Shown: piece after piece, positions 7,836 to 62,044 of the stretch
Position numbering within the stretch: position 1 is the stretch's first letter
How the letters are laid out: each line of letters begins with the position of its first letter
Source of the DNA: Pseudomonadota bacterium
Lineage (GTDB): Bacteria > Pseudomonadota > Alphaproteobacteria > Rhodobacterales > Rhodobacteraceae
DNA: 64,000 bases
Assembly: GCA_039821125.1 (NCBI GenBank)
Contig: JBCBOR010000018.1
Span: forward strand, 1,160 to 65,159
Direction: 5' to 3'
Position numbers and translations under genes: made by a program
Notes under the pieces: generated by a model
Databases searched by the model: none
What the model was told of the DNA's origin: nothing
What the model saw: only the letters and a program-made list of their open reading frames with translations

Positions 7836-7845
7836 GGAGGGGACG

Positions 7846-8607: not shown

Positions 8608-8611
8608 GCGC

Positions 8612-9214
8612 ATGGGCCGCGAACTGTTGAAGTGGTCGGAGTGGTCACCGGGTCTCGACACTGACGGGATGACCTTGCGCGACGCGATGGCGACCATGCC
8701 GCGCTCGGATCCCGACGATGTGCCGGAAATTGTGCGCAAGTACGAGAACCCGGAGAGCCCGGATCGATTGCCGGGCGCGATTTCCCTCGACCGTCACGAC
8801 TGTCTGCACACCATTCTCGGCCGCGGCCTTCATGTGCAGGACGAGGCCTTCATCATCGGCGTGACCATGGGCTCGGCCAGTGACATCACCTCTGACATCG
8901 TCGAGGAGTTCATCCGCATCTCGACGACAGATTACCCGGAGGCGTGGCGGTTCCAGCCTGAGCACATCGCGTCCTACCGACTTGGGGTCGGGTTTGCCGA
9001 AGACATGCTGGCGAACACGGACCTGCATTTCACGCCGTGGGAGGAGCCGCCGCTGTTCGATACAACGGTCGGTGAGATACGCCGTGACCTCGGATTGGTG
9101 AAGGCAGAGATGCGTGCCTACTTCCGTGCAGAGGAGATCCTCGTCCCCGGCACCCGCGCCACCCGTCGGCTGGACAACAGCGCTCGCCGCCCGGATCAGG
9201 CGATGAAGCCGTAG
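8612..9214 (+). CDS. Hypothetical soluble protein with a Coq4-like HDxxH-x11-E metal-binding motif
   Basis: RHDCLHTILGRGLHVQDEAF has the spacing H-D-x2-H-x3-G-x7-E that I recall for the Coq4 family. Starts 4 nt after the vWA gene stop. Confidence 0.55.
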   Translation: MGRELLKWSEWSPGLDTDGMTLRDAMATMPRSDPDDVPEIVRKYENPESPDRLPGAISLDRHDCLHTILGRGLHVQDEAFIIGVTMGSASDITSDIVEEFIRISTTDYPEAWRFQPEHIASYRLGVGFAEDMLANTDLHFTPWEEPPLFDTTVGEIRRDLGLVKAEMRAYFRAEEILVPGTRATRRLDNSARRPDQAMKP

Positions 9215-43140: not shown

Positions 43141-44021
43141 GCGGCCTCGCCGTTCTGCATATGCGCCGCTGCAGCGCTCAACGCAAATCTCAAGCTGTCG
43201 CCCGGCGCGTCTTGGCGGTCCTGTGATGCCAGGAAGGCTGACATGAGCGCATCGCCCGCACCGGTGATCGAAGCCGCCCCTGGCGTTTGCGGCGGGTTGG
43301 CCGTGACGACCTCGTCCGGTGTTGCCAACGCTGCCGGCCGCGGTCCATCGGTCACCAGGGCTGTCGCTGTGCACCTCGCCTGCAATGCTCGCGCGGCGTC
43401 GATACTGGTGTTGAAGGATCGCTCCAAAAGAACGCAGGCCTCCGCAAGGTTCACAACCAGCGTGGGAGCAACGTCACCGGACAGCAAAACACCGAGCCGG
43501 TGTGCCTTGGCCGGGCTGACCGGGTTCGCAATGATCCTCGCGCCCGCCTTTGCGCCATGGTGCGCGATCTTCTGCAAGGCTGTGGCTGCAAGGTTGGCCT
43601 CCAGCACAACAGTCGACACCGACGCAAGCGCCGATATCGCCTGCTCGACCACCGTATCGGCGCTGTTGTCGAGAAGCGCTGTGTCGGCGATCGCGGCAAA
43701 CAGGGCCTTTCGGTCATCTTCGATCGCGATGTAGTGACCGGTCGCAGCCCCCTCGATCCTGGCCATATAGGTGGACGCCACACCTGAATTTTCGAGGTGA
43801 TTGATCAGCGCGCTCCCCTCCGCATCATCGCCGACGGCTGAACAGAGACTGACGCGAATGCCGTGACGCGCCAGCCCGAGTGCCAGGTTCAGCGCCACAC
43901 CGCCGGGGCGACGCTCGACCCGGCCCGTCACATCATCACCCATGGCGAGCTTTGTGCTGGTCCTGCCGATGATGTCCCAATGCGCGGCGCCCACGCAGAG
44001 CATGAAGGATGGGTTCTGCAT
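43137..44021 (-). CDS. psuK: PfkB-family carbohydrate kinase (pseudouridine kinase-like)
   Basis: GGVALNLALGLARHG and C-terminal TGAGDALMSAF (PfkB anion-hole motif). ATG 44021 shares one base with the P450 stop (TGATG). Confidence 0.8.
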   Translation of the reverse strand: MQNPSFMLCVGAAHWDIIGRTSTKLAMGDDVTGRVERRPGGVALNLALGLARHGIRVSLCSAVGDDAEGSALINHLENSGVASTYMARIEGAATGHYIAIEDDRKALFAAIADTALLDNSADTVVEQAISALASVSTVVLEANLAATALQKIAHHGAKAGARIIANPVSPAKAHRLGVLLSGDVAPTLVVNLAEACVLLERSFNTSIDAARALQARCTATALVTDGPRPAALATPDEVVTANPPQTPGAASITGAGDALMSAFLASQDRQDAPGDSLRFALSAAAAHMQNGEAA

Positions 44022-45235
44022 CAATGGGCCGCCTGTGCGCGTGGTCTTTCGGCAAGGTGCAACGCGGTCAGACCGCGAAAGTGATAGGCATTGCGGTATG
44101 GACCTGGCTGAACGCGAAACTCTGACCCCAGCACATCAAACAAGGTGCTGAGCGCGATCTGCATCTCGATCCTTGCGAGCGGTGCGCCGACGCAAAAGTG
44201 CACGCCGCCGCCCAGCGATACGTGTCGGGGACGAACCCGCGCTGGATCGAAAATCTCAGGCAAGCGGTTCGCGCGTTCATCGTGATTGGCCGAGCCAATG
44301 AGCAGGCCCACCTGCGCGCCTTTCTTCAGGGCAACACCGTTCCAGTCGAGATCGTTCAGCACATAGCGCGTGAACATGTGAAGGGGCGGGTCGAACCGCA
44401 GCAGTTCTTCGACGACATTCCCCGAGATCTCATCACGCAGAGGCACGTCATGGCCGAGCAAGGTCCGGATCGAATTGCCGAGTGCATGCACAGTCGCTTC
44501 ATGCCCCGCGTTCAACAACAGGATCGCGGTGGCCACGACCTCATCGACGGACAGCCGGTCGCCAGCTTCTTCCGTCGCGATGAGAACGCTCAGAAGATCC
44601 TCGGCAGGATCTTGCCTGCGGCGCCGGATCAGATCGCGTATATAGGTCGAGAACGCCTGCGTCGCGGCTGAGGCACTGTCCTCGATCTCGCGGTCCCGCC
44701 GGGCCTGATACAGTGCGACCATTCGATGGGACCAGTCCAGAAGTTGAGGGGCCATGTCGAGCGGGACACCAAGCAGTTCTGCGATGATCGTGATGGGAAT
44801 GGGCGTGCAGTAGCGCTCGATTAGATCATCGCCCTCTTTCAGCCCTTGCGCCAGCTCAAACGCCAGCGTTTGAATGCGCGGGCGCAGGCCCTCGATGCTG
44901 GCCGATACGAAGGCCCGATTGATCAGGGATCGAAGACGGGTGTGTTTGGGCGGCTCTTTTTCGAGCAGCGAGTGCGCCTCGAACGCATAAAACGCCTCGA
45001 GATGCTCGGGTATCGGATCCCATCCCAGTTCCTCGCGCGTCGCGAGGTGCAGAATCTCACGACCGAACCGGCGATCGCGAAAAATCGCGTTCACGTCCTC
45101 GAACCGGGGGAAAACCCACATGTCGTACTCGTCCCACCAGAACACCTCGTGTTGCCGGAAGGATCGATAGACCGGGTAGGGGTTCTGCACGAACGTCGGA
45201 CAGGTCGGTGACTGGCAGATGGTGGGACGGGACAT
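44021..45235 (-). CDS. Cytochrome P450
   Basis: Heme-binding loop SLGGGVHFCVGAPLAR, ExxR (EELLRF) and I-helix LLNAGHEAT. Confidence 0.92.
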   Translation of the reverse strand: MSRPTICQSPTCPTFVQNPYPVYRSFRQHEVFWWDEYDMWVFPRFEDVNAIFRDRRFGREILHLATREELGWDPIPEHLEAFYAFEAHSLLEKEPPKHTRLRSLINRAFVSASIEGLRPRIQTLAFELAQGLKEGDDLIERYCTPIPITIIAELLGVPLDMAPQLLDWSHRMVALYQARRDREIEDSASAATQAFSTYIRDLIRRRRQDPAEDLLSVLIATEEAGDRLSVDEVVATAILLLNAGHEATVHALGNSIRTLLGHDVPLRDEISGNVVEELLRFDPPLHMFTRYVLNDLDWNGVALKKGAQVGLLIGSANHDERANRLPEIFDPARVRPRHVSLGGGVHFCVGAPLARIEMQIALSTLFDVLGSEFRVQPGPYRNAYHFRGLTALHLAERPRAQAAH

Positions 45236-45320
45236 CCCACAAGTGTCGCCTGACCGTTCAGCCGGCGCAACGGATCATTGAAGATCGGTGCGCATCACCG
45301 CTTCCGGACCCCTGCGGCGC

Positions 45321-46508
45321 TTAAGACAAGGCGACCGGCACGGACAGTGGACCCCGAAAGGCCCAGCCGCCGAACGCGACGTCATCGACCAGCCGCAGGT
45401 TCGGGAAGCGCTGAAACAGCTTTGGAAGTGCGACATCCGCGATGAGCGTCTTCGATGCAGCGGCACCGGCGCAGAAGTGCGGCCCGGCGCCGAACGGGAT
45501 CGCCTGACGATTGTCGCGCGAGATGTCAAACAGCTCCGGATCGTCAAAGACTCGCGGGTCGCGGTTGGCGGCGCCGAACATCAGGAACACGCGCTGGCCT
45601 GGTTCAAAGGCGTACTCCAGCACGGTCTCGGCACGCGCGATCTCGCGTGGCGACATTCCGATCGGGGAGACCCAGCGGGCATATTCTTCGAACGCGTCGG
45701 CATAGCTCGCCTGTCCCGCTGCGAGCTTTTCGAATTGGCCCGGGTGCGCAAGCAGCGCCCACGCCGTTCCCGCAATCGCGTCACGTGGTTCGTTCTGTCC
45801 CCCCGAGATCGTCAGTTTCACATTCGCCCGGGTCGAGGCCATTTTCAGACCCGCCGCGAGTTGCACCGATAACAATGACGTGTCCGGCTCTGCCTTGAGC
45901 GCCGGCACCATGCGATCAATGTGCTCGTCGATATAGGCGGTCGCGGCATGGCACCGTTCCTCGACCTCAGGATCGCCAATGTAGTTCGCACAGCCGTCCA
46001 GCATGTGCTGGCTGACGCGATCCATCTCATGGGTCGGCATCTCGGTGAGGCCCGTGATCACCTTCAGCGCCTCGCCACAGACCGGCATGGCGTAGTCGCG
46101 CACCAGATCGCAGGTGGCGGCGGTTTCAAGCCCATCCAGTATCCGATCCGCGGCGTCATGAAACTTCTGTGCCCAAACCTGCCGAACCGTTCTGGGGCTC
46201 AGCGCGGGAAAGGCGATCTTGCGCTCGACCAGATGATCGTCACCATCCTTGCGCATCATGTTCTCGCCCATCAGAATCGTCATCAGACCGTCCGGCTGCC
46301 GGGACGAGAACACGTCGATGCGTTTCTCCTGCTCGAAGATATCATTGCGCCGCGTGATCAGGACGGCGTTCAATTCCGGCACCTCAACCGCAGGCGCCAT
46401 GGCCTGAATGCGTTTCAGATCCGGATACGGATCCTGCCAGAACGCTTTGGGATCAATGGAATATGTTGGAGGCAACGTCCTTCCTCCCCCCGCGACGAGA
46501 TCATGCAT
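45321..46508 (-). CDS. Cytochrome P450 (second, divergent copy)
   Basis: Heme-binding loop PFGAGPHFCAGAAASK. 395 aa. Confidence 0.9.
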   Translation of the reverse strand: MHDLVAGGGRTLPPTYSIDPKAFWQDPYPDLKRIQAMAPAVEVPELNAVLITRRNDIFEQEKRIDVFSSRQPDGLMTILMGENMMRKDGDDHLVERKIAFPALSPRTVRQVWAQKFHDAADRILDGLETAATCDLVRDYAMPVCGEALKVITGLTEMPTHEMDRVSQHMLDGCANYIGDPEVEERCHAATAYIDEHIDRMVPALKAEPDTSLLSVQLAAGLKMASTRANVKLTISGGQNEPRDAIAGTAWALLAHPGQFEKLAAGQASYADAFEEYARWVSPIGMSPREIARAETVLEYAFEPGQRVFLMFGAANRDPRVFDDPELFDISRDNRQAIPFGAGPHFCAGAAASKTLIADVALPKLFQRFPNLRLVDDVAFGGWAFRGPLSVPVALS

Positions 46509-46513
46509 TCACG

Positions 46514-47179
46514 CTAGGACGTGCCGTCCTGAACTTTTTCGAGGTATTCTTCCTCGGAGAGTGTCCCACCTTCCTGCTCGGCCCGCCCCTGATCGTCCGG
46601 GTGCAGGAACGGTTGCAGCGGTTCGATCCGTTTCCAGGCCGGGAAGGGCTGGTTGCCCTCCGCATCCGGGACGTAGGGAGACGTCTCGACGCGCGTGTGT
46701 TTGTGAATATAGCGCGCGCAGTTCTGGAACACGACCGTCACCGCGACATCCACGACCATGTTGCAGCCGGGGAAGTCAGCCATCAGGGCAGGGTCCTTGC
46801 ACAGTTTGGCTTTGCCTTGCACCCGGATGCGCCACGGGGTGACCATGTCCATGAACAGCATCCCGACATTGGCGGCGTCGCTGATGTTCCCCATCGACAA
46901 CCACATGCCATTGCCGTCGTAGTTCGGAAAGATCAGGCGGTTTGGCCCAAGCACTTTGACGAACCCGACATCGCCGCCCTTGTACGAGACTGTCGGCATC
47001 CCCTCGCCATCCACCGTGGACAGGAAAAAGTAATCCCGGCTGGTGATGTAATCCGTGTGGATCTCCTCAAGCTCGTCCCGGACAATCGCGTGCACGACCA
47101 CCTCTGAAAGCTTGTCATGTTGCGCGTCGCTCTGCAGAGCCCGCTGCGCCTTGGTGTAGAACTCGTCCGGTGTCGGCAT
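46514..47179 (-). CDS. Pyridoxamine-5'-phosphate-oxidase-like FMN-binding split-barrel protein
   Basis: FFLSTVDGEGMPTVSYKGG..GFVKV and RIRVQGKA, typical of the PNPOx-like family. Its stop lies 5 nt upstream of the P450 start. Confidence 0.7.
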   Translation of the reverse strand: MPTPDEFYTKAQRALQSDAQHDKLSEVVVHAIVRDELEEIHTDYITSRDYFFLSTVDGEGMPTVSYKGGDVGFVKVLGPNRLIFPNYDGNGMWLSMGNISDAANVGMLFMDMVTPWRIRVQGKAKLCKDPALMADFPGCNMVVDVAVTVVFQNCARYIHKHTRVETSPYVPDAEGNQPFPAWKRIEPLQPFLHPDDQGRAEQEGGTLSEEEYLEKVQDGTS

Positions 47180-47206
47180 CTTGCCCTCTGTCAGGTTGGG
47201 TCCCGA

Positions 47207-48229
47207 TCAACTCGCATCGGCCTCTTCTGCGGCTGGTGCCGGTGCGCTGAGATTTGGAGCGTCCTCGAACTCCATCACCCTCGGCTGCGGTTTCTTGTTG
47301 ATCAGCAGACGGGTCACGTCGGGCCGCGAATAGTGCCCAGACGGGTCCGCCGCCGCCTTTGCCACGGAAATCATCGGCAGATTGATCTCGGCAATGATCA
47401 GACCCTCCTGGTCCTCTGGCAGGTGTTCGGCCATCGGCTGGCCGTCGGGTCCGAAGATCATCGAAAAGCCGCCGCCGGGCTTGCCGGTTGCCGGGTTCAG
47501 CAGATGCGCTTTGTCCTCGGTGTCGCAGAGCTTGTCGAACATGTCCTGCCCGGTGATGGCAGTCGATGCCAGCACATAGCACTGCCCCTCGAGCGCGTAG
47601 ACCTGGCTGGCCGCGAGGTTTGCTTCGGGTCCCAAAGCGTAGGCCATGCCGCGATAGAGCGTGAACGAGGGCCACGACGCGCAATGGACCTGCTCGCCCA
47701 TCGCGTACATCGCGTATTTCGAAAGAGGCTGAAGATGCTCCCAGCAGCACAGCGCGCCCACACGGCCGCATTCGGTCTCAACCACGTTGAAATGCGAACC
47801 ATCGCCCTCGCCAAACAGCGTTCGCTCCACATGGGTGGGCTTCAGCTTCCGGCGATGGAACCCGACGCCGCCATCGGAGCCGATCAGGACCTGCGCCATG
47901 TAGATCGAGCCGCCGTCGATCTCCGAGTAGCCCATCATGACGTTGATGTCGTTGGCCTTGGCCGCGGCGCGTAGCCGGTCCATCTCCGGTCCGTCCCGGC
48001 GCATGCAGCTTGCGTGATAGCCCGGGACGAATTGCAACCCCCAGGCGGGCGCAGCGAGCCACAAGAACCACGGATAGCCGGGGATCCAAGTCTCCGGGAA
48101 CGCAATCAGTTTCACATCCTGTTTTGCAGCGTCCTCGATCAGTGAAATCGCTTTGTCGACGCAACCCTGAAGATCCATGAACACGGGCGCGGCCTGCACA
48201 GCCGCTGCCTTGAAAGTCTGTAACGTCAT
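47207..48229 (-). CDS. Nitrilase (carbon-nitrogen hydrolase branch 1)
   Basis: Catalytic triad contexts [12 protein letters not shown] (Glu), HRRKLKPT (Lys) and GALCCWEH (Cys). Start at ATG 48229, preceded by GGAGAA. Confidence 0.9.
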
Positions 48230-48547
48230 TGGCTTTCTCCCTGCGAGAGCAGATGCGTTGAACACCGCCGAGCGTGTGGGCCCAGCGTGACAGTGTCAAC
48301 TCAACACAGGGGATCCGGGGCATTTGACGGGGATCGGTGTGCGAAAGTGTCCGCCGAGTTTGGATACGATTGTCTCCGGCGCACAGTCATGGAACCGCTC
48401 ACACAGGCCAATGAACCATCGCGTGCGAACCGCGTGCCGATATTGCCTTTAATCCGCCGCATCGAGACGCTTTGACGTAGCGCGAGCGGACGGGTGTGTG
48501 GCAGGATCGGCAGCCAGCAAGACCGTCGCAGAACAGGGGTTGAGCAG

Positions 48548-50158
48548 TTGAAGACGTTCCTTTTCGGCCTCGCCATCGTCGGCGCGCTTGTTGTCGGCGC
48601 GATCGCGATCCTTGGGAGCCAGGGCATCGGCGCGCGCACGCATCTCTCAATCGTCTCAGGCTCGGAGAACAAGGCTCTGGAACCGATTGTTCGGGATTGG
48701 GCAGACGCGAACAACATCGATGTCGCCATGACATATCTCGGGTCGGTCGATATCAGCCGGGAACTCGGGCTTGGCACCGAGACAGTCTACGATGCGGTCT
48801 GGCCCGCGCACTCGCTTTGGATCGAACTGGGCGATACGCAGAAGGTCGCCAAGCACCGCGAGTCGATCCTGCGGTCTCCCGTCGTACTGGGCCTGCGCAA
48901 ATCGATAGCCGAACGTCTCGGATGGGTCGGGCGCAACGATGTGACGCTGGAGGAGATCCAGTCGGCTGCAAAGGCCGGGGAGTTCCGCCTCTCAATGACC
49001 TCCGCCACCCAGTCCAATTCCGGGGCGTCGGCATTCTTCGGGTTTCTCTACGCGCTTGCAGGCGAGCCGGACGTGCTGACCTCGGCCCATCTCGGCGATG
49101 CCGCTGTGCGGGCCTCGGTTTCCGAACTGCTTGGCCTTGTCGACCGGTCCTCCGGATCCTCGGGTTGGCTCAAGGACTCGGTGGTCGAGAACCCTGTCGC
49201 CTTCGATGCGATGATGAACTACGAGGCACTGATCATCGAGGGCAATCAGGACCTCGTCCGCGTCGGGCAGGAACCGCTCTACGTGATCTACCCCGCCTCG
49301 GGCATGGCGGTGGCGGACAGCCCGCTCGCATATGTGTCCAAGGGCGATGTGGCGAAGGAGGAGGCGTTCCTGGCCCTTCAGACGCATCTGCTGTCCGATC
49401 CGGTCCAGCAGCAGCTGTTGGCGCTTGGTCGGCGGGCCGGGCTGATCGGCCTGGCAGGCGGGGGCTCGCGCGATGTCTGGAACCCCGACTGGGGCATCGA
49501 TCTCGACCGTCAGATCGCACCGATCCCGACCCCGGCCAGCGAGGTGATCCGCGAGGCGCTGACGCTCTACCAGACCGATCTGCGCAAGCCGTCACTGACC
49601 GTCTGGGTCCTGGACGTGTCCGGATCGATGGAGGGCGAGCCGCTCGACCAGCTCAAACAGGCCATGCGCCTGCTGCTCGACCCGGAAAGCGCTACACTGA
49701 ACCTGTTGCAACCCTCGTCACGCGACGTGACCATCGTGATCCCGTTCAACGGCAGGGTCGAGGACATCTGGAAGCTGGAGGGCAACGATCCCGCCAGACT
49801 GGCTGACCTCGACCGCAAGGTGCAGCGGTTGCAGGCGGGTGGCGGCACCGATCTTTACTATGCGCTGGGACAGGCGCTGGAGCAGCTGGAGGTCTACGCC
49901 AAGGCCGGCACGCTCTTTGATCACCTGCCCGCAATCATTGCGATGACCGATGGCGCATCGGACGAGGGCAACAAGGCGGCTCTGAGTTCGTACATCGAAA
50001 CCCTCAGCTTTGGACGCGACATCCCGATCCACTCGATCGCCTTCGGAAAAGCGGATGAAAAACAGCTGAAGGACCTGAGCGAGGCTTCGATCGGGCGACT
50101 TTTCAAGGCCAAAGACAATCTTGCAGGCGCGCTGCGCAAGGCCAAAGGCTACAACTGA
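48548..50158 (+). CDS. Membrane-anchored periplasmic-binding-protein-fold domain fused to a C-terminal vWA domain
   Basis: Track ORF is 48494..50158. I favour the TTG at 48548 (MKTFLFGLAIVGALVVG), preceded by AGGGG. The N-terminal half is SBP-like (LSMTSATQSNSGASAFFGF). The C-terminal half has MIDAS VLDVSGSM, GGGTDLY and AMTDGASDEG. Confidence 0.8.
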   Translation: MKTFLFGLAIVGALVVGAIAILGSQGIGARTHLSIVSGSENKALEPIVRDWADANNIDVAMTYLGSVDISRELGLGTETVYDAVWPAHSLWIELGDTQKVAKHRESILRSPVVLGLRKSIAERLGWVGRNDVTLEEIQSAAKAGEFRLSMTSATQSNSGASAFFGFLYALAGEPDVLTSAHLGDAAVRASVSELLGLVDRSSGSSGWLKDSVVENPVAFDAMMNYEALIIEGNQDLVRVGQEPLYVIYPASGMAVADSPLAYVSKGDVAKEEAFLALQTHLLSDPVQQQLLALGRRAGLIGLAGGGSRDVWNPDWGIDLDRQIAPIPTPASEVIREALTLYQTDLRKPSLTVWVLDVSGSMEGEPLDQLKQAMRLLLDPESATLNLLQPSSRDVTIVIPFNGRVEDIWKLEGNDPARLADLDRKVQRLQAGGGTDLYYALGQALEQLEVYAKAGTLFDHLPAIIAMTDGASDEGNKAALSSYIETLSFGRDIPIHSIAFGKADEKQLKDLSEASIGRLFKAKDNLAGALRKAKGYN

Positions 50159-50754
50159 TGCACCTGCCTGACGGTCAGCGCCAGATCGTGGCCGGGCTCG
50201 GCGCATCTGTGGCGTTTCTGTCGATATTCTTCGGGCTTGGGCTGGTCTGGTGGGCCGCGCTGATCGCAGGGTTCGCGGTTTATCTCGCGATCCTGCTGAT
50301 CGTCGAGCGCAAGACGCCTGAGACCGAGGAGATGGTTGCCGATGGGATCTCGCGGGCCGAATTGACGGGGGCGATCAACGCGATCACGGCCGCATCTTCA
50401 AAGATGCGCCAGTTGGCGACCGCGGCACGGGGCGACGATCGCGGCGAATTCCAGAAGATGGCGAAGCTGTTCGAGGCGATCCGCGCCCATCACATCAAGG
50501 ACCCGCGTGACTATCATCACACCCGCACCTTCATTCGCCACGATCTGCCTCGCATCGTCGACACGGCCGAGCGCTATGTCGATCTCGACAAAAGGGCGTC
50601 GGGCGAGAACCGTGACCGTGTGGATGCCCTGGGAGAACAGATACGCAGTTTCACCCCCGTGTTGGAGAAGATCGACCAGGCCTGCCTCGAGAACGATTTC
50701 ATGGCCCTGGAAGTTCAGGTCGAGGTGCTGGGCGAGCAACTGGGCAAACGGTGA
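50158..50754 (+). CDS. Two-TM helical protein, XpaC-like (5-bromo-4-chloroindolyl phosphate hydrolysis protein family architecture)
   Basis: TGATG overlap with the upstream gene. Two N-terminal TM helices followed by a ~140-aa helical domain. The family label rests on remembered architecture and is not verified. Confidence 0.65.
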   Translation: MHLPDGQRQIVAGLGASVAFLSIFFGLGLVWWAALIAGFAVYLAILLIVERKTPETEEMVADGISRAELTGAINAITAASSKMRQLATAARGDDRGEFQKMAKLFEAIRAHHIKDPRDYHHTRTFIRHDLPRIVDTAERYVDLDKRASGENRDRVDALGEQIRSFTPVLEKIDQACLENDFMALEVQVEVLGEQLGKR

Positions 50755-50787
50755 GCACGCAGCCTACGGAATGCTGAGGAGACCATC

Positions 50788-51879
50788 ATGAAGAAATCCG
50801 TCATCGGCCTTCTGATCCTGGGCGTCGTGGCCGCAGCTGCGGTGGCCGGCAGCATGGTCGACTGGTCTGGTCTGCAGCGGGCGGTGCCTGTCTCCCGCGA
50901 TCCGATCAATCTCTCGATTTTCTACGGCGGAGAGAAGCGTGCCCTGCTCGGCAACCCGAGGATCCAGGAGATCATCAAGGGCCGCTACAAGATCACGCTG
51001 GATGCGGTCAAGGCGGGCTCGGTCGAGATGGCGACGACCCTGGATACTACCGGCAAGGCGTGCATCTGGCCCTCGAACATGGTGGCTGTCGAACTGGCCC
51101 GCCAGTCGGGAAAACCGGTCAAGGGCGATGAGACAATCTTCAACTCGCCCATTGTGTTCTACGCCTGGGCCGATGTCGCCGACGCCTTGGCCACCAGGGA
51201 CGTGGTGCGGGAGGGGACGAACGGTCAGTTGACCGCAGATGTCTCGAAGATCGGTGCCCTGATCCGCGACGGCACGCGCTGGAAGGAGGATCTTGGTCTT
51301 AACGTCTACGGTCCCTTCAAGGTGTTCTCGACGCATCCGGCGAAGTCGAACTCGGGCAACATCTGGTCCGGCCTGCTGGCAACGGTGCTGAACGGCGGAA
51401 CCACACCGACCGAGGATGACCTGCCGGGCCTGTTGCCGAAGATCGAGGCCTATTTCGATGCGATGGGGCACATGGAGGCGTCCTCGGGCGATATCTTCGA
51501 GAATTTCCTGAAACAGGGCATGGGCGCCCGTCCGATCATCGTGGGCTATGAGAACCAGTTGATCGAGTTCCTGATCGAGAACGCGCAATACGCAGATCTG
51601 ATCCGCGACAAGATCCGGGTGATCTATCCCGAGCCGACGATCTTTGCCTCGCATCCCCTGATCTCGCTGACCGATGGATGCAAGCGGCTGGCCGAAGCCC
51701 TGCAGGATCCTGACGTACAGGAAATCGCATGGTCCCAGCACGGGTTCCGCACGGGCCTGCTGGGTGTTGAAAACGATCCCGCCGCGATCACCGTGGCGAC
51801 GCTTCCCGATCGCGTCGATCTGGTCATCCCAATGCCATCGGCGGCTGTGGTCGATGCGGTGATCGACACCGTGCGCTAA
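50788..51879 (+). CDS. Membrane-anchored/exported binding-protein-fold protein, paralogue of the N-terminal half of the 48548..50158 product
   Basis: Anchor MKKSVIGLLILGVVAAAAVAG. FSTHPAKSNSGNIWSGLLATVLNGG parallels LSMTSATQSNSGASAFFGFLYALAG in the upstream fusion protein. Confidence 0.7.
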   Translation: MKKSVIGLLILGVVAAAAVAGSMVDWSGLQRAVPVSRDPINLSIFYGGEKRALLGNPRIQEIIKGRYKITLDAVKAGSVEMATTLDTTGKACIWPSNMVAVELARQSGKPVKGDETIFNSPIVFYAWADVADALATRDVVREGTNGQLTADVSKIGALIRDGTRWKEDLGLNVYGPFKVFSTHPAKSNSGNIWSGLLATVLNGGTTPTEDDLPGLLPKIEAYFDAMGHMEASSGDIFENFLKQGMGARPIIVGYENQLIEFLIENAQYADLIRDKIRVIYPEPTIFASHPLISLTDGCKRLAEALQDPDVQEIAWSQHGFRTGLLGVENDPAAITVATLPDRVDLVIPMPSAAVVDAVIDTVR

Positions 51880-52037: not shown

Positions 52038-52114
52038 TGGTCGGAGTGGCAGGATTTGAACCTGCGGCCCCTGCCTCCCGAAGACAGTGCTCTACCAAGC
52101 TGAGCTACACTCCG
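52038..52114 (-). tRNA. tRNA-Pro (anticodon CGG)
   Basis: The reverse complement folds as a 77-nt cloverleaf: acceptor CGGAGTG/CACTCCG, D arm GCTC-AGCTTGGTA-GAGC, anticodon arm CTGTC-TTCGGGA-GGCAG, T arm GCAGG-TTCAAAT-CCTGC, and an encoded CCA. Confidence 0.92.
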
Positions 52115-55801: not shown

Positions 55802-55930
55802 TCCGAGGCCACGCGGCGGAAATCCGGTATTTCGCACGCGCAGCATTTTTATCCCCGCAAGCGAACGCGAACGGTTGATCTTTCGTAAAACGCGTCTAAC
55901 GATGCGTCGGACTTTTTGATGTGGGGACGA

Positions 55931-56938
55931 ATGTCGCTGGATTCCATTGGATCAGACCCGGTGCTTGCGGTCGAGGACCTGCGCACGGTTTTCCATACGG
56001 GCGAGGGCACGGTCCACGCGGTCAACGGCGTCAGCTTTTCGGTCCGCGAAGGTGAGCTTCTGGGGGTCGTGGGCGAGTCCGGCTCGGGCAAGTCCGTGAC
56101 CATGATGTCGCTGATGAAGCTGTTGCCGATGCCGCCAGGCGAGATCGTCTCGGGCTCGGTCCGGTTCGATGGGCGCGATCTGACCAAGATCCCCGACAAG
56201 GAACTGCGCGACATTCGCGGCGGCCAGATCGGCTTCGTGTTCCAGGACCCGATGACGTCGCTGAACCCTGTGTTCAATGTCGGCTTTCAGATCATGGAGC
56301 CGCTGCGCATCCATCTCGGCCTGTCGAAACGCGAGGCGCGCGACCGGGCGGTCGAACTGCTGGAACTGGTCGGTATCCCCGACGCGCGCAAGCGCCTCAG
56401 CGATTATCCGCACCAGTTTTCGGGCGGGATGCGCCAGCGGGTGATGATCGCGATTGCGCTGGCCTGCGATCCCAAGGTGCTTATCGCGGACGAGCCGACC
56501 ACCGCGCTCGACGTGACGATCCAGGCGCAGATCCTCGAGCTGATCAAGAAGCTGCGCCAGGAACTGGGCATGGCGATCATCTGGATCACCCACGATCTGG
56601 GGGTGGTCGCGGGCATCGCCGACCGGGTGCTTGTGATGTATGGCGGGCAGATCGTCGAGCACGCGCCGGTGAGCGAGCTCTATGCCAATCCGCAGCATCC
56701 CTACACCCGTGCGCTGCTCGAGACGCTGCCAAGCATGGACGAAGACCGGACCGAGCGGCTCGCCTCGATCTCGGGCCAGCCGCCCAGCCTCACGAAACCG
56801 CTGACCTCGTGCCCGTTTGCGCCGCGCTGTGCCCATGCGATGGCCGGATGCCTTGTCGAGAACCCCGCTCTGGTCTCCGTTGGCGAGAACCACGATGTCG
56901 CCTGTCTGTGGGATCCGGCGACCGGAGGCGTGCGATGA
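55931..56938 (+). CDS. Peptide/nickel-family ABC transporter ATP-binding protein (DppD/OppD-like)
   Basis: Walker [24 protein letters not shown] and [11 protein letters not shown]. Start at the internal ATG (MSLDSIG). Confidence 0.9.
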
Positions 56939-57909
56939 CCGAGACGTTGCTGAAGGTCGAGAACCTGACGAAGCACTTCCCGATCTACTCCGGGATCTTT
57001 CGCCGCCAGAGCGGCACGGTCAAGGCGGTCGACGGCATCAGCTTCGAGATCCAACGCGGCGAGACCCTGGGTCTGGTTGGCGAATCAGGCTGTGGCAAAT
57101 CCACCGCCGGGCGGACAATCCTGCGGCTTTATGATGCCACGGCAGGGCGGATCCTGTTCGATGGACAGGACATCGCCGCGCTGAGCGGGGACGAGTTGCG
57201 CAATGCTCGCCCGCGCATGCAGATGATCTTTCAGGACCCGCAGGCATGCCTCAATCCGCGCATGACCGTCGGGTCAATCATTGCCGAGCCGTTGACGGAG
57301 CATGGCAACCTCAGAGCCGCAGACCGACAGACGAAGGTGCGCGAGTTGCTCGACGCCGTCGGGCTGAACCCGAACTTCGCCAACCGCTATCCGCACGAGT
57401 TCTCGGGCGGGCAGCGCCAGCGCATCGGGATCGCCCGTGCGCTTGCGCTCGAGCCCGACTTCATCGTCTGCGATGAACCGATTGCAGCCCTCGATGTCTC
57501 GATCCAGGCCCAGGTTGTGAACCTGTTGGAAGATCTGCAGGAAAAGCTTGGGCTGACCTATCTCTTTATCTCCCATGACCTCAGTATGGTCCGGCATATC
57601 TGCGACCGGGTCGCAGTGATGTATCTCGGTCGCGTGATGGAATTGGCGCCGCGTGAGTTGCTCTACAACACGCCAAAACACCCCTACACCCAGGCCCTGC
57701 TGAGCGCGGTCCCGATCCCGAAACCCGAGATCGAGGCAAGCCGCCAGCGCATCATCCTGACCGGCGATGTGCCAAGCCCGGCGAACCCGCCATCGGGCTG
57801 CGTTTTCCGCACGCGCTGTTCCAAAGCGACGGAGATTTGCGCCAGCGCAGTGCCTGAACCACGGGATCTTGGTGGCGGGCAGATCACCGCCTGCCACCAT
57901 GCCGAATAG
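56935..57909 (+). CDS. Peptide/nickel-family ABC transporter ATP-binding protein (DppF/OppF-like)
   Basis: Walker [24 protein letters not shown] and [15 protein letters not shown] overlap with the upstream ATPase gene. Confidence 0.9.
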
Positions 57910-58015
57910 AAGGGAAGGGGACGAGACGACCGAGACCGCCTGTGCGAAAGATGTTTACAAAATGACCGCGCGGGCAAATCGTTGACAAAGAGCTCAAATT
58001 ATCAGGGAGACTGAC

Positions 58016-59716
58016 ATGAAAAAGCTCACAACCATTCTGGCATCGACCGCCGCGGCGGCGCTGCTGGTCTCGCCGGCGATGGCCGAGCGGGGCGAAGACG
58101 GCCAGCTCAACATCCTTTACTGGCAGGCGCCGTCGACGCAGAACCCGTATTTGTCGGGCGGCACGAAGGACATCGAGTCCTCGTCGCTGGTGCTCGAGCC
58201 GCTGGCCAACTACGACCCTGAAGGCAACATGCTGCCGACGCTGGCCGCCGAGATCCCGACGCTGGGCAATGGCGGGATTTCCGAGGATCTGACCTCGATC
58301 ACGTGGAAGCTCAAGCAGGGTGTGACCTGGTCGGACGGCACGCCGTTCACCGCGGCAGACGTGGTGTTCTCGGGCGAGTACTGCCTGCACCCCGAAGGCG
58401 GCTGCAACGCGGCCTCGAAATTCAACGATGTCGAGAAGATCGAAGCGCTGGATGACCACACGGTCAAGATCACCTTCGGTGTCGCCAAGCCCTTCCCTTA
58501 TGGCCCGTTCGTGGGCGGCGACAGTCCGATCATCCAGAAGGCCCAGTTCCAGGACTGCATGGGCGCCAAGGCCCCTGAGTGTACCGACGCGAACTTTGGC
58601 CCGATCGGGACCGGCCCCTTCAAGGTCACCGAGTTCAAGGCCAATGACGTCGTGCTCTACCACATGAACGAGAGCTATCGCGAAGAGGGCAAGCCGAAAT
58701 TCTCGAACATCCTGTTCAAGGGTGGCGGCGATGCAGCGTCGGCAGCCCGTTCGGTGCTCGAGACCGGCGAGTTCGATTACGCCTGGAACCTGCAGGTCGA
58801 GCCCGAGATCCTGACCCAGATGGAAGCCAAGGGCAAAGGCAAGATCATCGCGGCCTTCGGCCCATCGGTTGAGCGCATCATGGTGAACTTCACCAACCCC
58901 GACCCGGCGCTGGGTGACGAGCGCGGCACGGTCAAGCACCCGCACCCGTTCCTGAAGGACACGGCTGTGACCAAGGCGATGAGCATGGCGATTGACCGGC
59001 AGATCCTCGTCGACGCGGGCTATGGCGCGGCCGGCAAGGTCACCTGCAACGTCCTTCCGGCACCGCCCGCCTACAACTCGACCGCCAATGACTGGTGCAA
59101 GACACCGGATCCCGAAGGCGCGAAAAAGCTGCTGGACGAGGCGGGCTGGGTCCCGGGCTCGGACGGCGTCCGCGAGAAGGACGGGGTTCGTCTCTCGGTG
59201 CTCTACCAGACGTCCACCAATGGGGTGCGCCAGGCAACCCAGGCGTTCATCAAACAGATGTGGGCCGAGATCGGAATCGAGACCGAACTGAAGAACATCT
59301 CCGCTTCGGTCTTCTTCGGCGGCGACCAGTCGAGCCCCGATACGTTCCAGAAGTTCTTCTCGGACGTCGAGATGTACACCAACAACTTCCCGGGCACCGA
59401 TCCGGAGGCGTACATGGGGTCGTGGACCTGCAAAGAGATCCCCTCACCCGAGAACCAGTGGGTCGCCAACAACATGCCGCGCTACTGCACCGAAGAGTAT
59501 GACGCGCTGGTCGCCAAGTACGGCGTCACCGCCGAGCCGGCCGAGCGTCAGAAAATCGCCAAGCAGCTGAACGACATGCTGATCCAGGCAGGCGCCATCA
59601 TCCCGCTGATCCACCGGGGCCGCGTGGCTGCACACTCGCTGACCCTGGGCGGTGTCAACATGACCGCGTGGGACAGCGAGATCCACAACGCCGAAGACTG
59701 GTACCGCATCAAGTAA
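58016..59716 (+). CDS. Family-5 (peptide/opine/nickel) ABC transporter substrate-binding protein
   Basis: Signal peptide MKKLTTILASTAAAALLVSPAMA. 566-aa SBP_bac_5-like protein. Confidence 0.88.
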   Translation: MKKLTTILASTAAAALLVSPAMAERGEDGQLNILYWQAPSTQNPYLSGGTKDIESSSLVLEPLANYDPEGNMLPTLAAEIPTLGNGGISEDLTSITWKLKQGVTWSDGTPFTAADVVFSGEYCLHPEGGCNAASKFNDVEKIEALDDHTVKITFGVAKPFPYGPFVGGDSPIIQKAQFQDCMGAKAPECTDANFGPIGTGPFKVTEFKANDVVLYHMNESYREEGKPKFSNILFKGGGDAASAARSVLETGEFDYAWNLQVEPEILTQMEAKGKGKIIAAFGPSVERIMVNFTNPDPALGDERGTVKHPHPFLKDTAVTKAMSMAIDRQILVDAGYGAAGKVTCNVLPAPPAYNSTANDWCKTPDPEGAKKLLDEAGWVPGSDGVREKDGVRLSVLYQTSTNGVRQATQAFIKQMWAEIGIETELKNISASVFFGGDQSSPDTFQKFFSDVEMYTNNFPGTDPEAYMGSWTCKEIPSPENQWVANNMPRYCTEEYDALVAKYGVTAEPAERQKIAKQLNDMLIQAGAIIPLIHRGRVAAHSLTLGGVNMTAWDSEIHNAEDWYRIK

Positions 59717-59740
59717 GCGGCACCGTCCCAAACGCCAACC

Positions 59741-59768
59741 GGCACGGCCCCAACGGCGGGGCCGTGCC
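59741..59768 (+). other. Stem-loop after the peptide SBP gene (11-bp perfect stem)
   Basis: ggcacggcccc-aacggc-ggggccgtgcc, 25 nt after the SBP stop. No U-tract. Confidence 0.7.
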
Positions 59769-59813
59769 CTCCCCAGCAAGCGCTGGCTCGCTGGCTGACC
59801 CGGAGGACACTCC

Positions 59814-60095
59814 TTGCTCGGCTACATAGTCAAAAGACTGCTCTTCGCCGTCCCGGTTCTGATCGGTGTGTCGTTCGTGAACCACACGATCCTGTGCCAC
59901 GCGCCCGGTGATCCGACCGCACAGTTGCCGCTGTCGATACCGGCGGAGGATCGCGCGAGGATCATCGATGACCTTGGTCTGAACCAGCCCTGCCATATCC
60001 GTTATCTGAACTGGGCGCGGCACATGTTCATCAACGAGCCGGCCTGTCTGGCGGAACAATGGGCCCTGCAGCCCATGTCATCGCGGGAAAGCTGA
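59814..60095 (+). pseudogene. Relic of a duplicated DppB-type permease N-terminus (TM1 plus first periplasmic loop only)
   Basis: The 93-aa product (MLGYIVKRLLFAVPVLIGVSFVNHTILCHAPGDPTAQLPLSIPAEDRARII...) is collinear with the first ~95 aa of the next gene (MLRYTIRRLLFMIPTLLVISFIIFAILDFAPGDPTAQLPLTIPAEVREQI...) and then stops. Its TGA directly abuts the ATG at 60096. Confidence 0.6.
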
Positions 60096-61109
60096 ATGCT
60101 CCGCTACACCATTCGTCGCCTGCTGTTCATGATCCCCACATTGCTGGTGATCTCGTTCATCATCTTCGCCATTCTGGATTTTGCTCCGGGCGATCCGACG
60201 GCGCAGCTCCCGCTGACCATCCCCGCCGAGGTGCGCGAGCAGATCCGCGAGGCGCTTGGTCTGGGCGAGCCGCTCTACGTGCGCTACGGCCTCTGGCTGC
60301 AACAGTTCTTCTGGAACGAGCCGCTGAACCTGATCGAGCAGTGGACCGGCGCCACGATCGGCGACTCGGAGAATCGGGTTCGCATAATCTCGTGGTCAAC
60401 ACGCTCGCCCGTCGTTGATCTGATCGTCGAGCGGATGCCGCAGACGCTCTGGGTCGTCGGCACCGCCTATCTCGTCGCCATCCTGATTGCGATCCCGATC
60501 GGCGTGATCTCAGCCTACAAACAGTACTCGTGGTTTGACAACACCGGGACATTCGTCTCGATGATCGGCTTCTCGATCCCGCCGTTCTTCTCGGGCCTCG
60601 TGCTGATCGTGATCTTCTCGGTCTCGCTGGGCTGGTTCCCGTCGATCTACGACACCACGCACCGGGTCACCGGCTGGGACAGCTTTGTCGTGCAGGTCAA
60701 CCAGATGTTCCTGCCGGTCATGGTGCTGGCCCTGCAGATCACGGCGCAGCTGTCGCGCTTCATGCGCTCGTCCATGCTCGACAATCTCAACCTCGACTAT
60801 GTCCGCACGGCGCGGGCCAAGGGCGTGAAGGAGCGCACGGTGGTCCTGCTGCACGTGCTCAGGAACTCGATGATCCCGGTGGTGACCGTCATCGCGCTCG
60901 GCGTGCCGCAGATCTTCGGCGGCGCCATCATCACCGAGCAGATCTTCAAGGTGAACGGTCTTGGCGCGCTGCTGATCGGCGGCATCGAGGCGGCGGACAT
61001 TCCGCTGGTCCAGACCCTGACCTTCATCTTCGCCGTGCTGATCGTTCTGTTCAACCTGATCGCCGATATCCTCTACGGCATTCTTGACCCGAGGATCCGC
61101 TATGACTGA
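60096..61109 (+). CDS. Peptide-family ABC transporter permease (DppB/OppB-like)
   Basis: 337 aa with six TM segments. YVRTARAKGVKERTVVLLHVLRNSMIPVVT EAA-region motif. Confidence 0.9.
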   Translation: MLRYTIRRLLFMIPTLLVISFIIFAILDFAPGDPTAQLPLTIPAEVREQIREALGLGEPLYVRYGLWLQQFFWNEPLNLIEQWTGATIGDSENRVRIISWSTRSPVVDLIVERMPQTLWVVGTAYLVAILIAIPIGVISAYKQYSWFDNTGTFVSMIGFSIPPFFSGLVLIVIFSVSLGWFPSIYDTTHRVTGWDSFVVQVNQMFLPVMVLALQITAQLSRFMRSSMLDNLNLDYVRTARAKGVKERTVVLLHVLRNSMIPVVTVIALGVPQIFGGAIITEQIFKVNGLGALLIGGIEAADIPLVQTLTFIFAVLIVLFNLIADILYGILDPRIRYD

Positions 61110-61117
61110 GGTCCGAC

Positions 61118-62044
61118 ATGGCTGAGCAAACAGCAGATCCCGGCCAGGGCGCCATGGAGCCGATCAAGGCGCACCGCTCGCTCTGGGCCGATGTCTGGTT
61201 GCAATACCGCAATCACACCGGGGCGCTTGTCGGTACAGCCGTCTTCGGCTTCATCGTGCTCGCGGTCCTGATCGGGCCGTTCATTCACACGATCGATCCC
61301 GGGTATCTGGATTTCCGGGCGCGCAACCTGAACCCGACCTGGGAGCATCCGATGGGCACCGACAATGTCGGGCGCGACATGCTGGCCCAGGTGCTGGCGG
61401 GCGGACGTGTCAGCCTCGCGGTCGGTGTGACAGCGATGCTGCTCTCGCTGCTCTTCGGTGCCGTGATCGGTGTTCTGGCCGGATATTTCAAAAGCCTCGA
61501 CGGCCCGTTGATGCGGCTGACGGATCTCTTTCTGGCGCTGCCGCTTCTGCCGCTGCTGCTGGTCATCATCATGCTGTTCCGCGATACGCTCCGGAATGCG
61601 TTCGGGCCCGAGAGCGGGATCTTCCTGCTGATCGTCTTCGTGATCGGCCTGACCTCGTGGATGCAGACCGCCCGGATCGTGCGCGGTGATGTGCTGGCGA
61701 TCAAGGAGCGCGAGTTCGTGCTGGCCGCCAAATCCATCGGCACGCGTGAGGGGCGGATCATCACCCGCCATATCTTTCCCAATGTGCTCAGCCCGATCAT
61801 GGTCTCGGCGACGCTGGGCTTGGCGAACGCGATCATCACCGAGTCAGCGCTCTCGTTCCTCGGCCTCGGCTTCCCGTCGGATTTCCCGACCTGGGGGCGG
61901 CTGTTGTTCGACGGCAAGGACTTCCTGACCCTGACGCCCGACCGGGTGATCTGGCCCGGCCTCGCGATCTCGCTGACGGTGCTGTCGGTCAACTACATGG
62001 GCGATGGCCTGCGCGACGCGCTCGACCCACGCCTCAGAACCTGA
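61118..62044 (+). CDS. Peptide-family ABC transporter permease (DppC/OppC-like)
   Basis: HPMGTDNVGRDMLAQVL N-terminal motif and EFVLAAKSIGTREGRIITRHIFPNVLSPIMV EAA region. Confidence 0.9.
   Translation: MAEQTADPGQGAMEPIKAHRSLWADVWLQYRNHTGALVGTAVFGFIVLAVLIGPFIHTIDPGYLDFRARNLNPTWEHPMGTDNVGRDMLAQVLAGGRVSLAVGVTAMLLSLLFGAVIGVLAGYFKSLDGPLMRLTDLFLALPLLPLLLVIIMLFRDTLRNAFGPESGIFLLIVFVIGLTSWMQTARIVRGDVLAIKEREFVLAAKSIGTREGRIITRHIFPNVLSPIMVSATLGLANAIITESALSFLGLGFPSDFPTWGRLLFDGKDFLTLTPDRVIWPGLAISLTVLSVNYMGDGLRDALDPRLRT

Follow-up and report, generated by a model that had tools for sequence, protein, structure and literature searches.

For some 25 years, TelA and XpaC have been associated with tolerance of tellurite, nisin, daptomycin and further agents that act on the envelope. 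Pairs of the two proteins, such as xpaC-yaaN of B. subtilis, lmo1966-lmo1967 of L. monocytogenes and xpaC-telA of E. faecium (YaaN being a TelA protein), constitute envelope-stress modules. XpaC/TelA belong to the Sigma-W regulon (PMC3498285), lmo1966-67 of Listeria is induced by bacteriocin and a telA mutant is sensitive to both nisin and tellurite (PMC12791056), and the daptomycin phenotype of an E. faecium delta-xpaC mutant needs an intact telA (PMC6811118). The mechanism of TelA/XpaC was still termed unknown in 2026 (PMC12791056).

Organization of the locus

Three co-directional genes on the plus strand, termed A, B and C, form a cassette at positions 48548–51879 of the window, i.e. the whole 64-kb stretch of DNA that was analysed, and their ORFs were confirmed. 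Gene A (48548–50158; ORF, Pfam, ribosome-binding site and database gene call) encodes an anchored SBP::vWA fusion, gene B (50158–50754; PF10112 match and family alignment) an XpaC-family protein and gene C (50788–51879; hhalign, AF2, Foldseek and ribosome-binding site) a predicted stand-alone exported SBP-fold protein. The initial annotation had described three plus-strand genes joined by a TGATG overlap and a 33-nt gap, and all of this could be read directly in the sequence: base 50158 is common to the stop codon of A and the start codon of B, and the gap lies between B and C. TTG at 48548 was considered a more likely start for gene A than GTG at 48494, which would lengthen the protein by 18 aa, because GGGG, a probable ribosome-binding site, is located 8 nt upstream of the TTG and because the database gene call is of 536 aa.

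The flanks of the cassette in the window encode P450s, a PNPOx-like protein, a nitrilase, a NAD-binding protein, an M20 peptidase and Fe-ADH. A full Opp/Dpp-type ABC operon (55916–62044) with its own family-5 SBP lies approximately 4 kb downstream and is unrelated to the cassette. The tRNA-Pro gene that had been reported beside the locus is indeed its neighbour (52038–52114, 159 nt past the stop codon of C), but it is on the minus strand and convergent with the cassette, 3' end to 3' end; no significance could be attached to the adjacency, as the 3'-end sequence of the tRNA occurs once, with no second copy in the whole 64-kb window. A tRNA-integrated genomic island was considered and rejected: there was no att-like repeat, no integrase among the flanking genes in a Pfam scan and no compositional shift, the GC content being 0.61–0.63 throughout.

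The first gene of the other vWA locus of the window is distantly XpaC-like (hhalign 94.4 %) and lies beside a vWA protein and a PBP-II of another kind; in that locus a PBP-II is paired with a peptidoglycan-binding OmpA domain. Profile comparison indicates that the gene at 5503–6162 in that locus encodes a cryptic XpaC-like protein.

Predicted features of the three proteins

Gene A had been read as a TM-anchored binding protein joined to a vWA domain whose MIDAS (metal-ion-dependent adhesion site) is complete, and Pfam matches, the AF2 model (pLDDT 93.6, pTM 0.89) and invariant residues all agree with that reading. The protein matched SBP_bac_11 (E 5.6e-9) and VWA (E 4e-10) above the gathering cut-offs, and VWA_2 and VWA_3 likewise exceeded theirs. 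Its N-terminal hydrophobic helix (residues 2–23, 48551–48616, plus strand), recognized from the AF2 model and from the N-termini of homologues, is predicted to be a signal anchor or an export signal; a lipobox Cys occurs at this position in 65 of 104 diverse A homologues, and nearly all A and C proteins have a hydrophobic N-terminus. The SBP (PBP type II) domain (approximately residues 30–300, 48635–49447, plus strand), delimited by Pfam, conservation and Foldseek, carries the conserved motifs SGSEN, GS, WPA, SATQSNSG, RSSGSSG, NYE and GRR at helix N-termini, and its best Foldseek matches were FbpA, AfuA, Sbp and 6lkg.

The vWA domain (approximately residues 349–536, 49592–50155, plus strand; Pfam VWA, VWA_2 and VWA_3) ends in a conserved KGYN. 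Its MIDAS is complete, comprising D356, S358 and S360 in the DxSxS motif (49613–49627), T434 (49847–49849) and D468 (49949–49951), all on the plus strand and in 536-aa numbering. These residues, which are those of the previously noted VLDVSGSM, GGGTDLY and MTDGASDEG, were invariant in 31 diverse homologues. In the PDB, both sequence and fold matches of the domain were to the vWA domains of ITIH1, CLCA1 and the anthrax-toxin receptor.

The product of gene B, initially described as an XpaC-like helical protein with two TM segments, matched PF10112 (Halogen_Hydrol, the XpaC family) over its full length (profile positions 5–191 of 191; E 8.2e-14, 52.5 bits against a cut-off of 29.8). Two hydrophobic helices at the N-terminus (approximately residues 10–29 and 34–51, nt 50185–50310) are followed in the family alignment by a helical domain of about 150 aa with no detectable homology to TelA. 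Charge analysis revealed an uncharged loop between TM1 and TM2 and K/R on both flanks, and the helical domain is predicted to be cytoplasmic.

No Pfam or NCBIfam match was obtained for gene C, and a PDB profile search also gave none. Comparison with the N-terminal half of A, of which it had been proposed to be a paralogue, gave 24 % identity over 343 aa by BLASTP (E 6e-5), and profile–profile alignment with the A family (hhalign) gave 99.3 % (E 1.6e-20); judged on these two agreeing sequence comparisons, C is a true paralogue of this half. Relative to the SBP domain of A it contains an insertion at approximately residues 135–170, and its conserved motifs are GGEK, AGS, WPS, SNSG, SSG, GYE and HGFR. 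The gene is preceded by a ribosome-binding site (GAGGAG, 7 nt upstream). The AF2 model (pLDDT 93.0) confidently predicts an SBP fold, with sulfate-binding protein (1sbp/5um2), ModA and FbpA as top Foldseek matches; for A and C together, the Foldseek matches to Sbp, ModA and FbpA had a probability of 1.0, and TM reached 0.74 on the target. For annotation of the window there is a practical gain, in that gene C can be named an SBP paralogue instead of a ‘hypothetical protein’, and the gene at 5503–6162 can likewise be better annotated.

The cleft-lining motifs of both SBP modules were invariant across phyla. As the fold class and the Ser/Gly/Asn motifs of A and C resemble those of sulfate, molybdate, phosphate, iron and sugar-phosphate binders, we infer that the clefts bind a small anionic ligand, which by analogy may resemble an oxyanion, iron or a phospho-compound; the pockets were assigned from conservation mapped on to predicted secondary structure and from fold neighbours of 8–16 % identity. 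The first pocket motif also contains an invariant Glu (E40 in A, E49 in C), a residue not typical of a bare oxyanion site, which weighs against that ligand model.

Conservation of the cassette and linkage to telA

The survey of the cassette covered 80 genomes and more than 12 phyla, and 72 loci were informative for gene order. Synteny of the three genes in relatives, set as a test beforehand, was observed in many phyla: the order A-B-C was kept in 62 of the 72 informative loci, and A-C in seven more. The A-B-C loci were from Desulfobacterota, Chloroflexota, Acidobacteriota, Melainabacteria, Armatimonadota, Spirochaetota, Planctomycetota, Firmicutes, Patescibacteria, Bacteroidota, Verrucomicrobiota and Alphaproteobacteria. 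Even to its closest relatives, the window locus showed homology only between about 48620 and about 51888.

A telA gene (PF05816) was present on the same strand and no more than 110 nt away in 32 of the 62 A-B-C loci, as exemplified by the neighbour of the Anaerococcus cassette (PF05816, E 1e-110), and the linkage was recovered again when C homologues were taken as the starting point. About half of the relatives thus have this cytoplasmic protein encoded within the operon of the cassette. On a Variovorax replicon the order was permuted, with a C-like gene, TelA and A followed by a possible XpaC-like gene (weak match). No telA was detected in the 64-kb window by hmmsearch (E ≤ 1), and the cassette studied here is the telA-less, three-gene form.

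The nearest flanking genes in the 80 loci (n=122) were heterogeneous and housekeeping-like, comprising 134 Pfam families, none of which was recurrent. A histidine kinase lay beside the cassette in about 10 of the 80 loci, with no consistent linkage. On the sequence evidence, the best reading is that the locus is one example of an envelope module that centres on XpaC, is complete in itself and is widely conserved.

Proposed function and alternatives

Whilst the identity of the parts of the cassette is solid, their mechanism is something that we infer. The reading preferred here, with a probability of roughly 0.5, is that the cassette senses or captures a ligand outside the cytoplasm, as the front end of an XpaC/TelA envelope-stress module, and that it relays its liganded state to XpaC. 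XpaC would form a two-TM hairpin in the inner membrane with its helical domain in the cytoplasm, and A and C would sense or capture ligand outside the cytoplasm, in a non-transporter role. A divalent cation bound at the MIDAS of A would clamp a partner, which may be C, a second A molecule or some component of the envelope. The membrane anchor and the XpaC hairpin would pass the liganded state on to the cytoplasmic helical domain, which would control TelA, or another partner where telA is unlinked as here, and the output would tune the tolerance of membrane or envelope stress that is tied to XpaC/TelA in Firmicutes (nisin, daptomycin and tellurite). Against such a relay, the predicted XpaC hairpin would leave almost nothing in the periplasm, and the putative lipoprotein forms of A would have no TM–TM contact with it. 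The window locus is without telA and seven loci are without B, and the relay in its full form is therefore not obligatory.

More tentatively, the SBP::vWA/XpaC/SBP2 (± TelA) assembly might be a distinct pan-bacterial transmembrane sensor, in which two orphan SBPs detect a specific extracellular anion or metal-anion complex and, by way of the XpaC hairpin and a clamp formed at the MIDAS, switch the cytoplasmic XpaC/TelA machinery. Were this true, the input signal that TelA-type ‘toxic anion resistance’ and tolerance of lipopeptides and lantibiotics have long lacked would be identified, and a mechanism with it.

Periplasmic sequestration or detoxification, with A and C holding a toxic anion or metal, the MIDAS binding cations and XpaC anchoring or organizing the others without signalling, is unlikely, even though two binding modules of a high-copy type and a metal site are all exported, TelA/XpaC have a historical link to tellurite tolerance and half of the loci do without telA. 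Stoichiometric binding would protect only poorly, genes for reductases, efflux or methyltransferases are not linked to the cassette, and the strict keeping of XpaC with its predicted cytoplasmic domain, together with the frequent presence of TelA, favours a transmembrane function.

It also seems improbable that A and C are ordinary receptors for a distant ABC or other importer of an oxyanion, iron or a phospho-compound, to which vWA and XpaC would be accessory. An SBP with a lipid or TM anchor is nothing unusual in an ABC importer, orphan SBPs that work with distal transporters exist, and the nearest folds are indeed the transporter SBPs Sbp, ModA, FbpA and AfuA. The locus had, however, been noted for its lack of transporter genes, which was confirmed, no ABC permease or ATPase being encoded inside the cassette. 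When the neighbourhoods of the 80 loci were checked, an ABC ATPase was found within 2.5 kb (≤2.5 kb) in one locus, no permease was found near the cassette and no transporter family recurred among the 122 nearest flanking genes; cognate ABC genes, looked for in the other genomes, were not conserved beside it. The conserved partners are instead XpaC (62/72) and TelA (32/62), and the sole ABC system near the window locus is the complete Opp/Dpp operon with an SBP of its own.

A role as an envelope structural or assembly factor, modelled on vWA adhesins or MoxR-vWA metal-insertion chaperones, would have the MIDAS tether an envelope protein or polymer and the SBP-like domains lose small-ligand binding. 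The similarity of the vWA domain of A to protein-binding extracellular MIDAS domains (ITIH1, anthrax toxin receptor) speaks for this role, as does the PBP-II/OmpA pairing in the first vWA locus of the window, but no MoxR/AAA+ partner is conserved, and the invariance of the cleft motifs of both SBP modules across phyla suggests that a ligand site has been kept, which makes the role quite improbable.

Least probable is a Ter-like anti-phage or conflict system: one distant cassette copy adjoins a Wadjet gene on the Variovorax replicon, and Anantharaman, Iyer and Aravind reportedly connected some TelA and Ter clusters in 2012 with resistance to phage and colicins, but A, B, C and the linked TelA had no matches in PADLOC-DB 2.0 (E ≤ 0.01), TerB/C/D/Z, Ser/Thr kinase and PP2C genes were found neither in the window flanks nor among recurrent neighbours in the 80 loci, the flanking genes are of the heterogeneous, housekeeping kind (TIR in 2 of the 122 nearest), a relative is carried by only 5 of 72,556 plasmids, the window locus has no GC anomaly or att-like repeat, and the effector-like parts are all predicted extracytoplasmic binders, with no nucleases or toxins. 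Of the connection with TelA, XpaC and Ter-type conflict systems suggested in the initial annotation, the link to TelA/XpaC proved stronger than had been apparent, telA being the immediate neighbour in 32 of 62 relatives, whilst the Ter-type or conflict part was not supported, Ter genes and defence matches being absent. The view that the cassette is not characterized held in so far as no experimental study of it was found in the literature, but the PBP-II/TelA association had probably been noted computationally in the same 2012 work, which is said to mention sensory complexes of TelA/TerB in which PBP-II and OmpA domains occur.

The finding that XpaC, in many cases together with TelA, is hard-wired in more than 12 phyla to two exported, predicted ligand-binding proteins and a MIDAS domain turns the question of the XpaC/TelA stimulus into tractable biochemistry, namely the ligand of two soluble, well-folding domains. 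A further prediction from the cassette is that binding proteins of the oxyanion/iron class are used independently of transporters.

Comparison with known systems

In the SBPs of oxyanion and iron ABC importers, the helix N-termini of the cleft provide an anion-binding geometry. The ABC SBPs Sbp, ModA, PstS, FbpA and AfuA are the nearest solved folds for the N-terminal domain of A and for C, and share with them the Ser/Gly/Asn motifs at the N-termini of cleft helices, which are conserved in both proteins. Identity is, however, only 8–16 %, transporter genes are absent here and one copy is fused to vWA. The sensor PBPs (LuxP-LuxQ, TorT-TorS, ChvE-VirA and PDB 6lkg) similarly combine a type-II SBP that has no cognate transporter with a membrane-protein neighbour, and A has one of its best fold matches in 6lkg, a ‘two-component system’ SBP; here the partner is instead XpaC, which has no kinase or recognizable output domain and, as predicted, almost no periplasmic surface. 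The Ter cluster and TerY-P (TerY vWA, PP2C and Ser/Thr kinase) have in common with the cassette a MIDAS-type vWA and membership of the tellurite-resistance gene network of the 2012 computational work, but TerY is cytoplasmic, whereas the vWA of the cassette is predicted to be exported with an SBP and is closest in sequence to extracellular domains of the ITIH/CLCA type. Firmicutes XpaC and gene B share PF10112 and the arrangement of a two-TM hairpin and a helical domain. Compared with the XpaC-TelA module, the window cassette lacks the adjacent telA that is present in 32 of 62 cassettes elsewhere; to the classical pair, which is without SBP or vWA genes, the cassette adds two predicted exported SBP modules and a vWA domain.

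Gene structure and predicted location

Three plus-strand ORFs, gene A (48548..50158), gene B (50158..50754) and gene C (50788..51879), were supported as real genes by ORF reading of the window. Translation of A probably starts at the TTG at 48548 and not at the GTG at 48494 chosen in the initial annotation, because GGGG is found 8 nt upstream of the TTG and the public gene call for the exact protein is 536 aa. The A product is a solute-binding protein (SBP)–vWA fusion, with Pfam matches to SBP_bac_11 (residues 54–308 of the long ORF, E 5.6e-9, above cut-off) and to VWA, VWA_2 and VWA_3 (E about 1e-10, all above cut-offs). The B product, originally described as XpaC-like, is a bona fide XpaC-family member that matched the whole PF10112 model (52.5 bits, cut-off 29.8). 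No match to C was found in Pfam or NCBIfam. The reported junctions were read directly from the sequence: A and B are joined by TGATG, in which stop and start share one base, and B and C are separated by a 33 nt spacer that holds a GAGGAG ribosome-binding site. Promoter and terminator scans gave signals no better than in shuffled sequence, and an Rfam scan detected only two tRNAs and no riboswitch. The tRNA-Pro noted near the cassette is present at 52038–52114, but it is encoded on the minus strand and is convergent with the cassette.

Nearly every A and C homologue possessed an N-terminal hydrophobic segment, and 65 of 104 diverse A proteins carried a lipobox cysteine, so that both proteins are predicted from these N-terminal signals to be extracytoplasmic; the A protein of the window has a TM or signal-anchor helix in place of the lipobox. 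XpaC-family proteins possess two TM helices connected by an uncharged loop of 3–4 residues. As K/R residues flank this hairpin on both sides (means 1.7 and 2.3), the helical domain is predicted to be cytoplasmic under the positive-inside rule. Conservation in the B family is low (mean column identity 25 %, zero invariant residues), and a scaffold or switch role would therefore fit it better than that of an enzyme. Homology of the XpaC helical domain to TelA was rejected (hhalign probability 1.3 %).

Gene order in relatives and association with telA

The A family is very large, with >3000 word-index matches and 328 clusters at 50 % identity (E ≤ 1e-30). Its members are labelled ‘substrate-binding and VWA domain-containing protein’ by NCBI; the C homologues, which occur on the same contigs, are labelled ‘hypothetical protein’. 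Gene order was surveyed by ORF calling and phmmer/jackhmmer in one genome per species, which gave 80 loci from >12 phyla. The order A-B-C was kept in 62 of these, confirming synteny of the three genes in relatives; seven had A and C without B (mostly Chloroflexota, with one Patescibacteria), three had A alone and eight were cut off by a contig end.

The sole other recurrent neighbour in the 80 loci was TelA (PF05816, E 1e-110), and 32 of the 62 A-B-C loci had its gene on the same strand and ≤110 nt away. In Desulfobacterota, Firmicutes, Spirochaetes, Acidobacteriota and Bacteroidales telA follows C, and in Rhizobium it precedes A. Searches begun from two C homologues recovered the identical four-gene operon with telA. 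Rhodobacterales relatives were without an adjacent telA, as is the cassette studied here, and TelA is not encoded anywhere in the 64 kb window. A distant copy (29 % identity) on Variovorax sp. SRS16 plasmid 2 (NZ_LR594667.1, locus L086) had a permuted gene order, namely a C-like gene (hhalign 99.8 %), TelA, A and lastly a protein that may be XpaC-like (weak match, 55.9 %); a Wadjet JetA gene is found ~3 kb downstream of this copy.

Further variation was seen in individual lineages. Cable bacteria (Electrothrix/Electronema and relatives; loci L009, L016, L033 and L060) had ~400–950 nt extra between A and B, the insert in L009 containing a second XpaC-like paralogue. A second, longer A-like paralogue (855–927 aa) was found in a Paracoccaceae MAG (L048:7044–9611) and in Antarctobacter heliothermus (L074:6828–9611); in these ORFs Pfam detected SBP_bac_11 but not vWA, and neither B nor C follows them.

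Paralogy, fold and conserved residues of A and C

The proposed paralogy of C with the N-terminal half of A was upheld by BLASTP (24 % identity over 343 residues, E 6e-5) and by comparison of family profiles built from 31 diverse members each (99.3 % probability, E 1.6e-20). In the profile alignment residues 38–366 of C correspond to residues 35–351 of A, so that C ends where the vWA domain of A begins. A DNA-level trace of this paralogy is a 26 nt stretch, 77 % identical between A (49202–49227) and C (51454–51479), which codes for FDAMMNYEA and FDAMGHMEA, respectively.

AlphaFold2 models of C (pLDDT 93.0) and A (pLDDT 93.6, pTM 0.89) were confident. The nearest folds of C by Foldseek were sulfate-binding protein (1sbp, 5um2), ModA and ferric-binding proteins; a PDB search with the C-family profile gave no match even at E ≤ 10, and this placement is by fold comparison. 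The N-terminal domain of A was nearest to FbpA, AfuA, Sbp and the signalling SBP 6lkg, and its C-terminal domain to an ITIH1-type vWA. The complete metal-ion-dependent adhesion site (MIDAS) read earlier in A was corroborated, D356, S358, S360, T434 and D468 being invariant across 31 diverse homologues.

Invariant motifs were SGSEN, GS, WPA, SATQSNSG, RSSGSSG and NYE in the SBP module of A, and GGEK, AGS, WPS, SNSG, SSG and GYE in C. When conservation was mapped onto predicted secondary structure, rather than placed by superposition, the invariant residues of both modules appeared to fall at strand-to-helix junctions and are candidate cleft motifs. Oxyanion SBPs put their ligand contacts at such junctions. 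The A family also ends in a conserved (K/R)GYN (window 50144–50155), of which Y535 and N536 did not vary among 120 close homologues; across the 31 diverse homologues, conservation of G534 and Y535 was ≥90 %. This free C-terminus beside the MIDAS domain could be a metal or partner ligand.

The other vWA locus in the window

The window contains another vWA locus at 5503–9214, with all four genes on the plus strand. It encodes a two-TM helical protein of 219 aa (5503–6162), an NMT1-type SBP fused to OmpA (6159–7835), a stand-alone vWA protein (7846–8607) and a protein of 200 aa (8612–9214). The first of these had no Pfam match and was XpaC-like when compared with the XpaC-family profile by hhalign (94.4 %, E 8.7e-8, 192 columns), the relationship being distant; the 200 aa protein was rejected as XpaC-like on comparison. 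On comparison the NMT1-type SBP proved homologous to neither A nor C, and homology of the SBPs in the two loci was rejected. XpaC, type II periplasmic-binding protein (PBP-II) and vWA domains have thus been assembled twice in one genome from different parts, which provides independent support for a functional link of the three domain types.

Genomic surroundings

Homology of relatives to the window extended from ~48620 to ~51888, and the flanks differed even among close relatives. The 122 nearest flanking genes represented 134 Pfam families, the most frequent being EipB-like with six members, which were lineage-specific. Upstream of the cassette (44021–48265, minus strand) are two cytochrome P450 genes, a PNPOx-like flavoprotein gene and a nitrilase/CN-hydrolase gene; the PNPOx-like gene (46514–47179) was the only flank common to the window and its closest relatives, L004 and L005. 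No mobile-element genes were found near the cassette and no GC shift was seen at it. A tRNA-linked island was rejected, as a search for att-like repeats found none. Among 72,556 plasmids only five relatives were found, all of them distant.

Possible function of the cassette

In Firmicutes the sigma-W regulon includes an xpaC-telA pair (PMC3498285), Listeria lmo1966-67 responds to bacteriocin and telA affects sensitivity to nisin and tellurite (PMC12791056), and in E. faecium the daptomycin MIC fell 8-fold when only xpaC was lost, a drop that was not seen in the double xpaC telA deletion (PMC6811118). These independent genetic data link the function of XpaC with TelA and with envelope stress.

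With its components, export or anchor signals and genetic linkage documented here, the cassette has in our estimate about an even chance (roughly 0.5) of being a ligand-sensing or ligand-capturing front end that relays to XpaC, and to TelA where present. A and C would form the extracytoplasmic ligand-binding part, with a small anion, iron or a phospho-compound as the putative ligand; the MIDAS-bound cation of A would clamp a partner, the liganded state would be passed across the membrane to the cytoplasmic domain of XpaC, and this domain would regulate TelA where TelA occurs. The weak points of the relay are that XpaC, as predicted, is almost without periplasmic surface, and that telA is missing from half of the cassettes and B from seven. 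Passive sequestration by A and C is an improbable reading of a cassette that so commonly retains XpaC.

Slightly less probable still is that A and C are receptors for a distal transporter, as their folds might suggest. The absence of transporter genes from the locus extended to relatives: one of the 80 loci had an ABC ATPase within 2.5 kb, and a permease was detected in none. The nearest ABC system in the window (55916–62044, plus strand) is a complete Opp/Dpp-type importer, with two ATPases bearing oligo_HPY tails, a family-5 SBP and two BPD_transp_1 permeases, and has no relationship to the cassette. That the cassette serves as an envelope tether or assembly factor is quite unlikely. A defence system is hardly credible: the suggested Ter-type conflict link was not borne out, with no PADLOC match and no Ter, kinase or PP2C genes near the cassette.

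Comparison with known systems

When compared with Ter clusters, the TerY-P triad, PADLOC defence systems and tRNA islands, the locus belongs to none of them. Although A and C adopt the fold of SBPs, functionally they do not qualify as transporter SBPs because there is no cognate transporter. A full-text literature search returned Firmicute xpaC/telA stress papers alone, with none on an SBP-vWA operon and no experimental work. A membrane-associated TelA/XpaC module with added PBP-II domains was reportedly noted by comparative genomics by Anantharaman, Iyer and Aravind in 2012. On this basis, and as no experimental work was found, the locus in the window is a telA-less form of that already noted but uncharacterised TelA/XpaC and PBP-II module.
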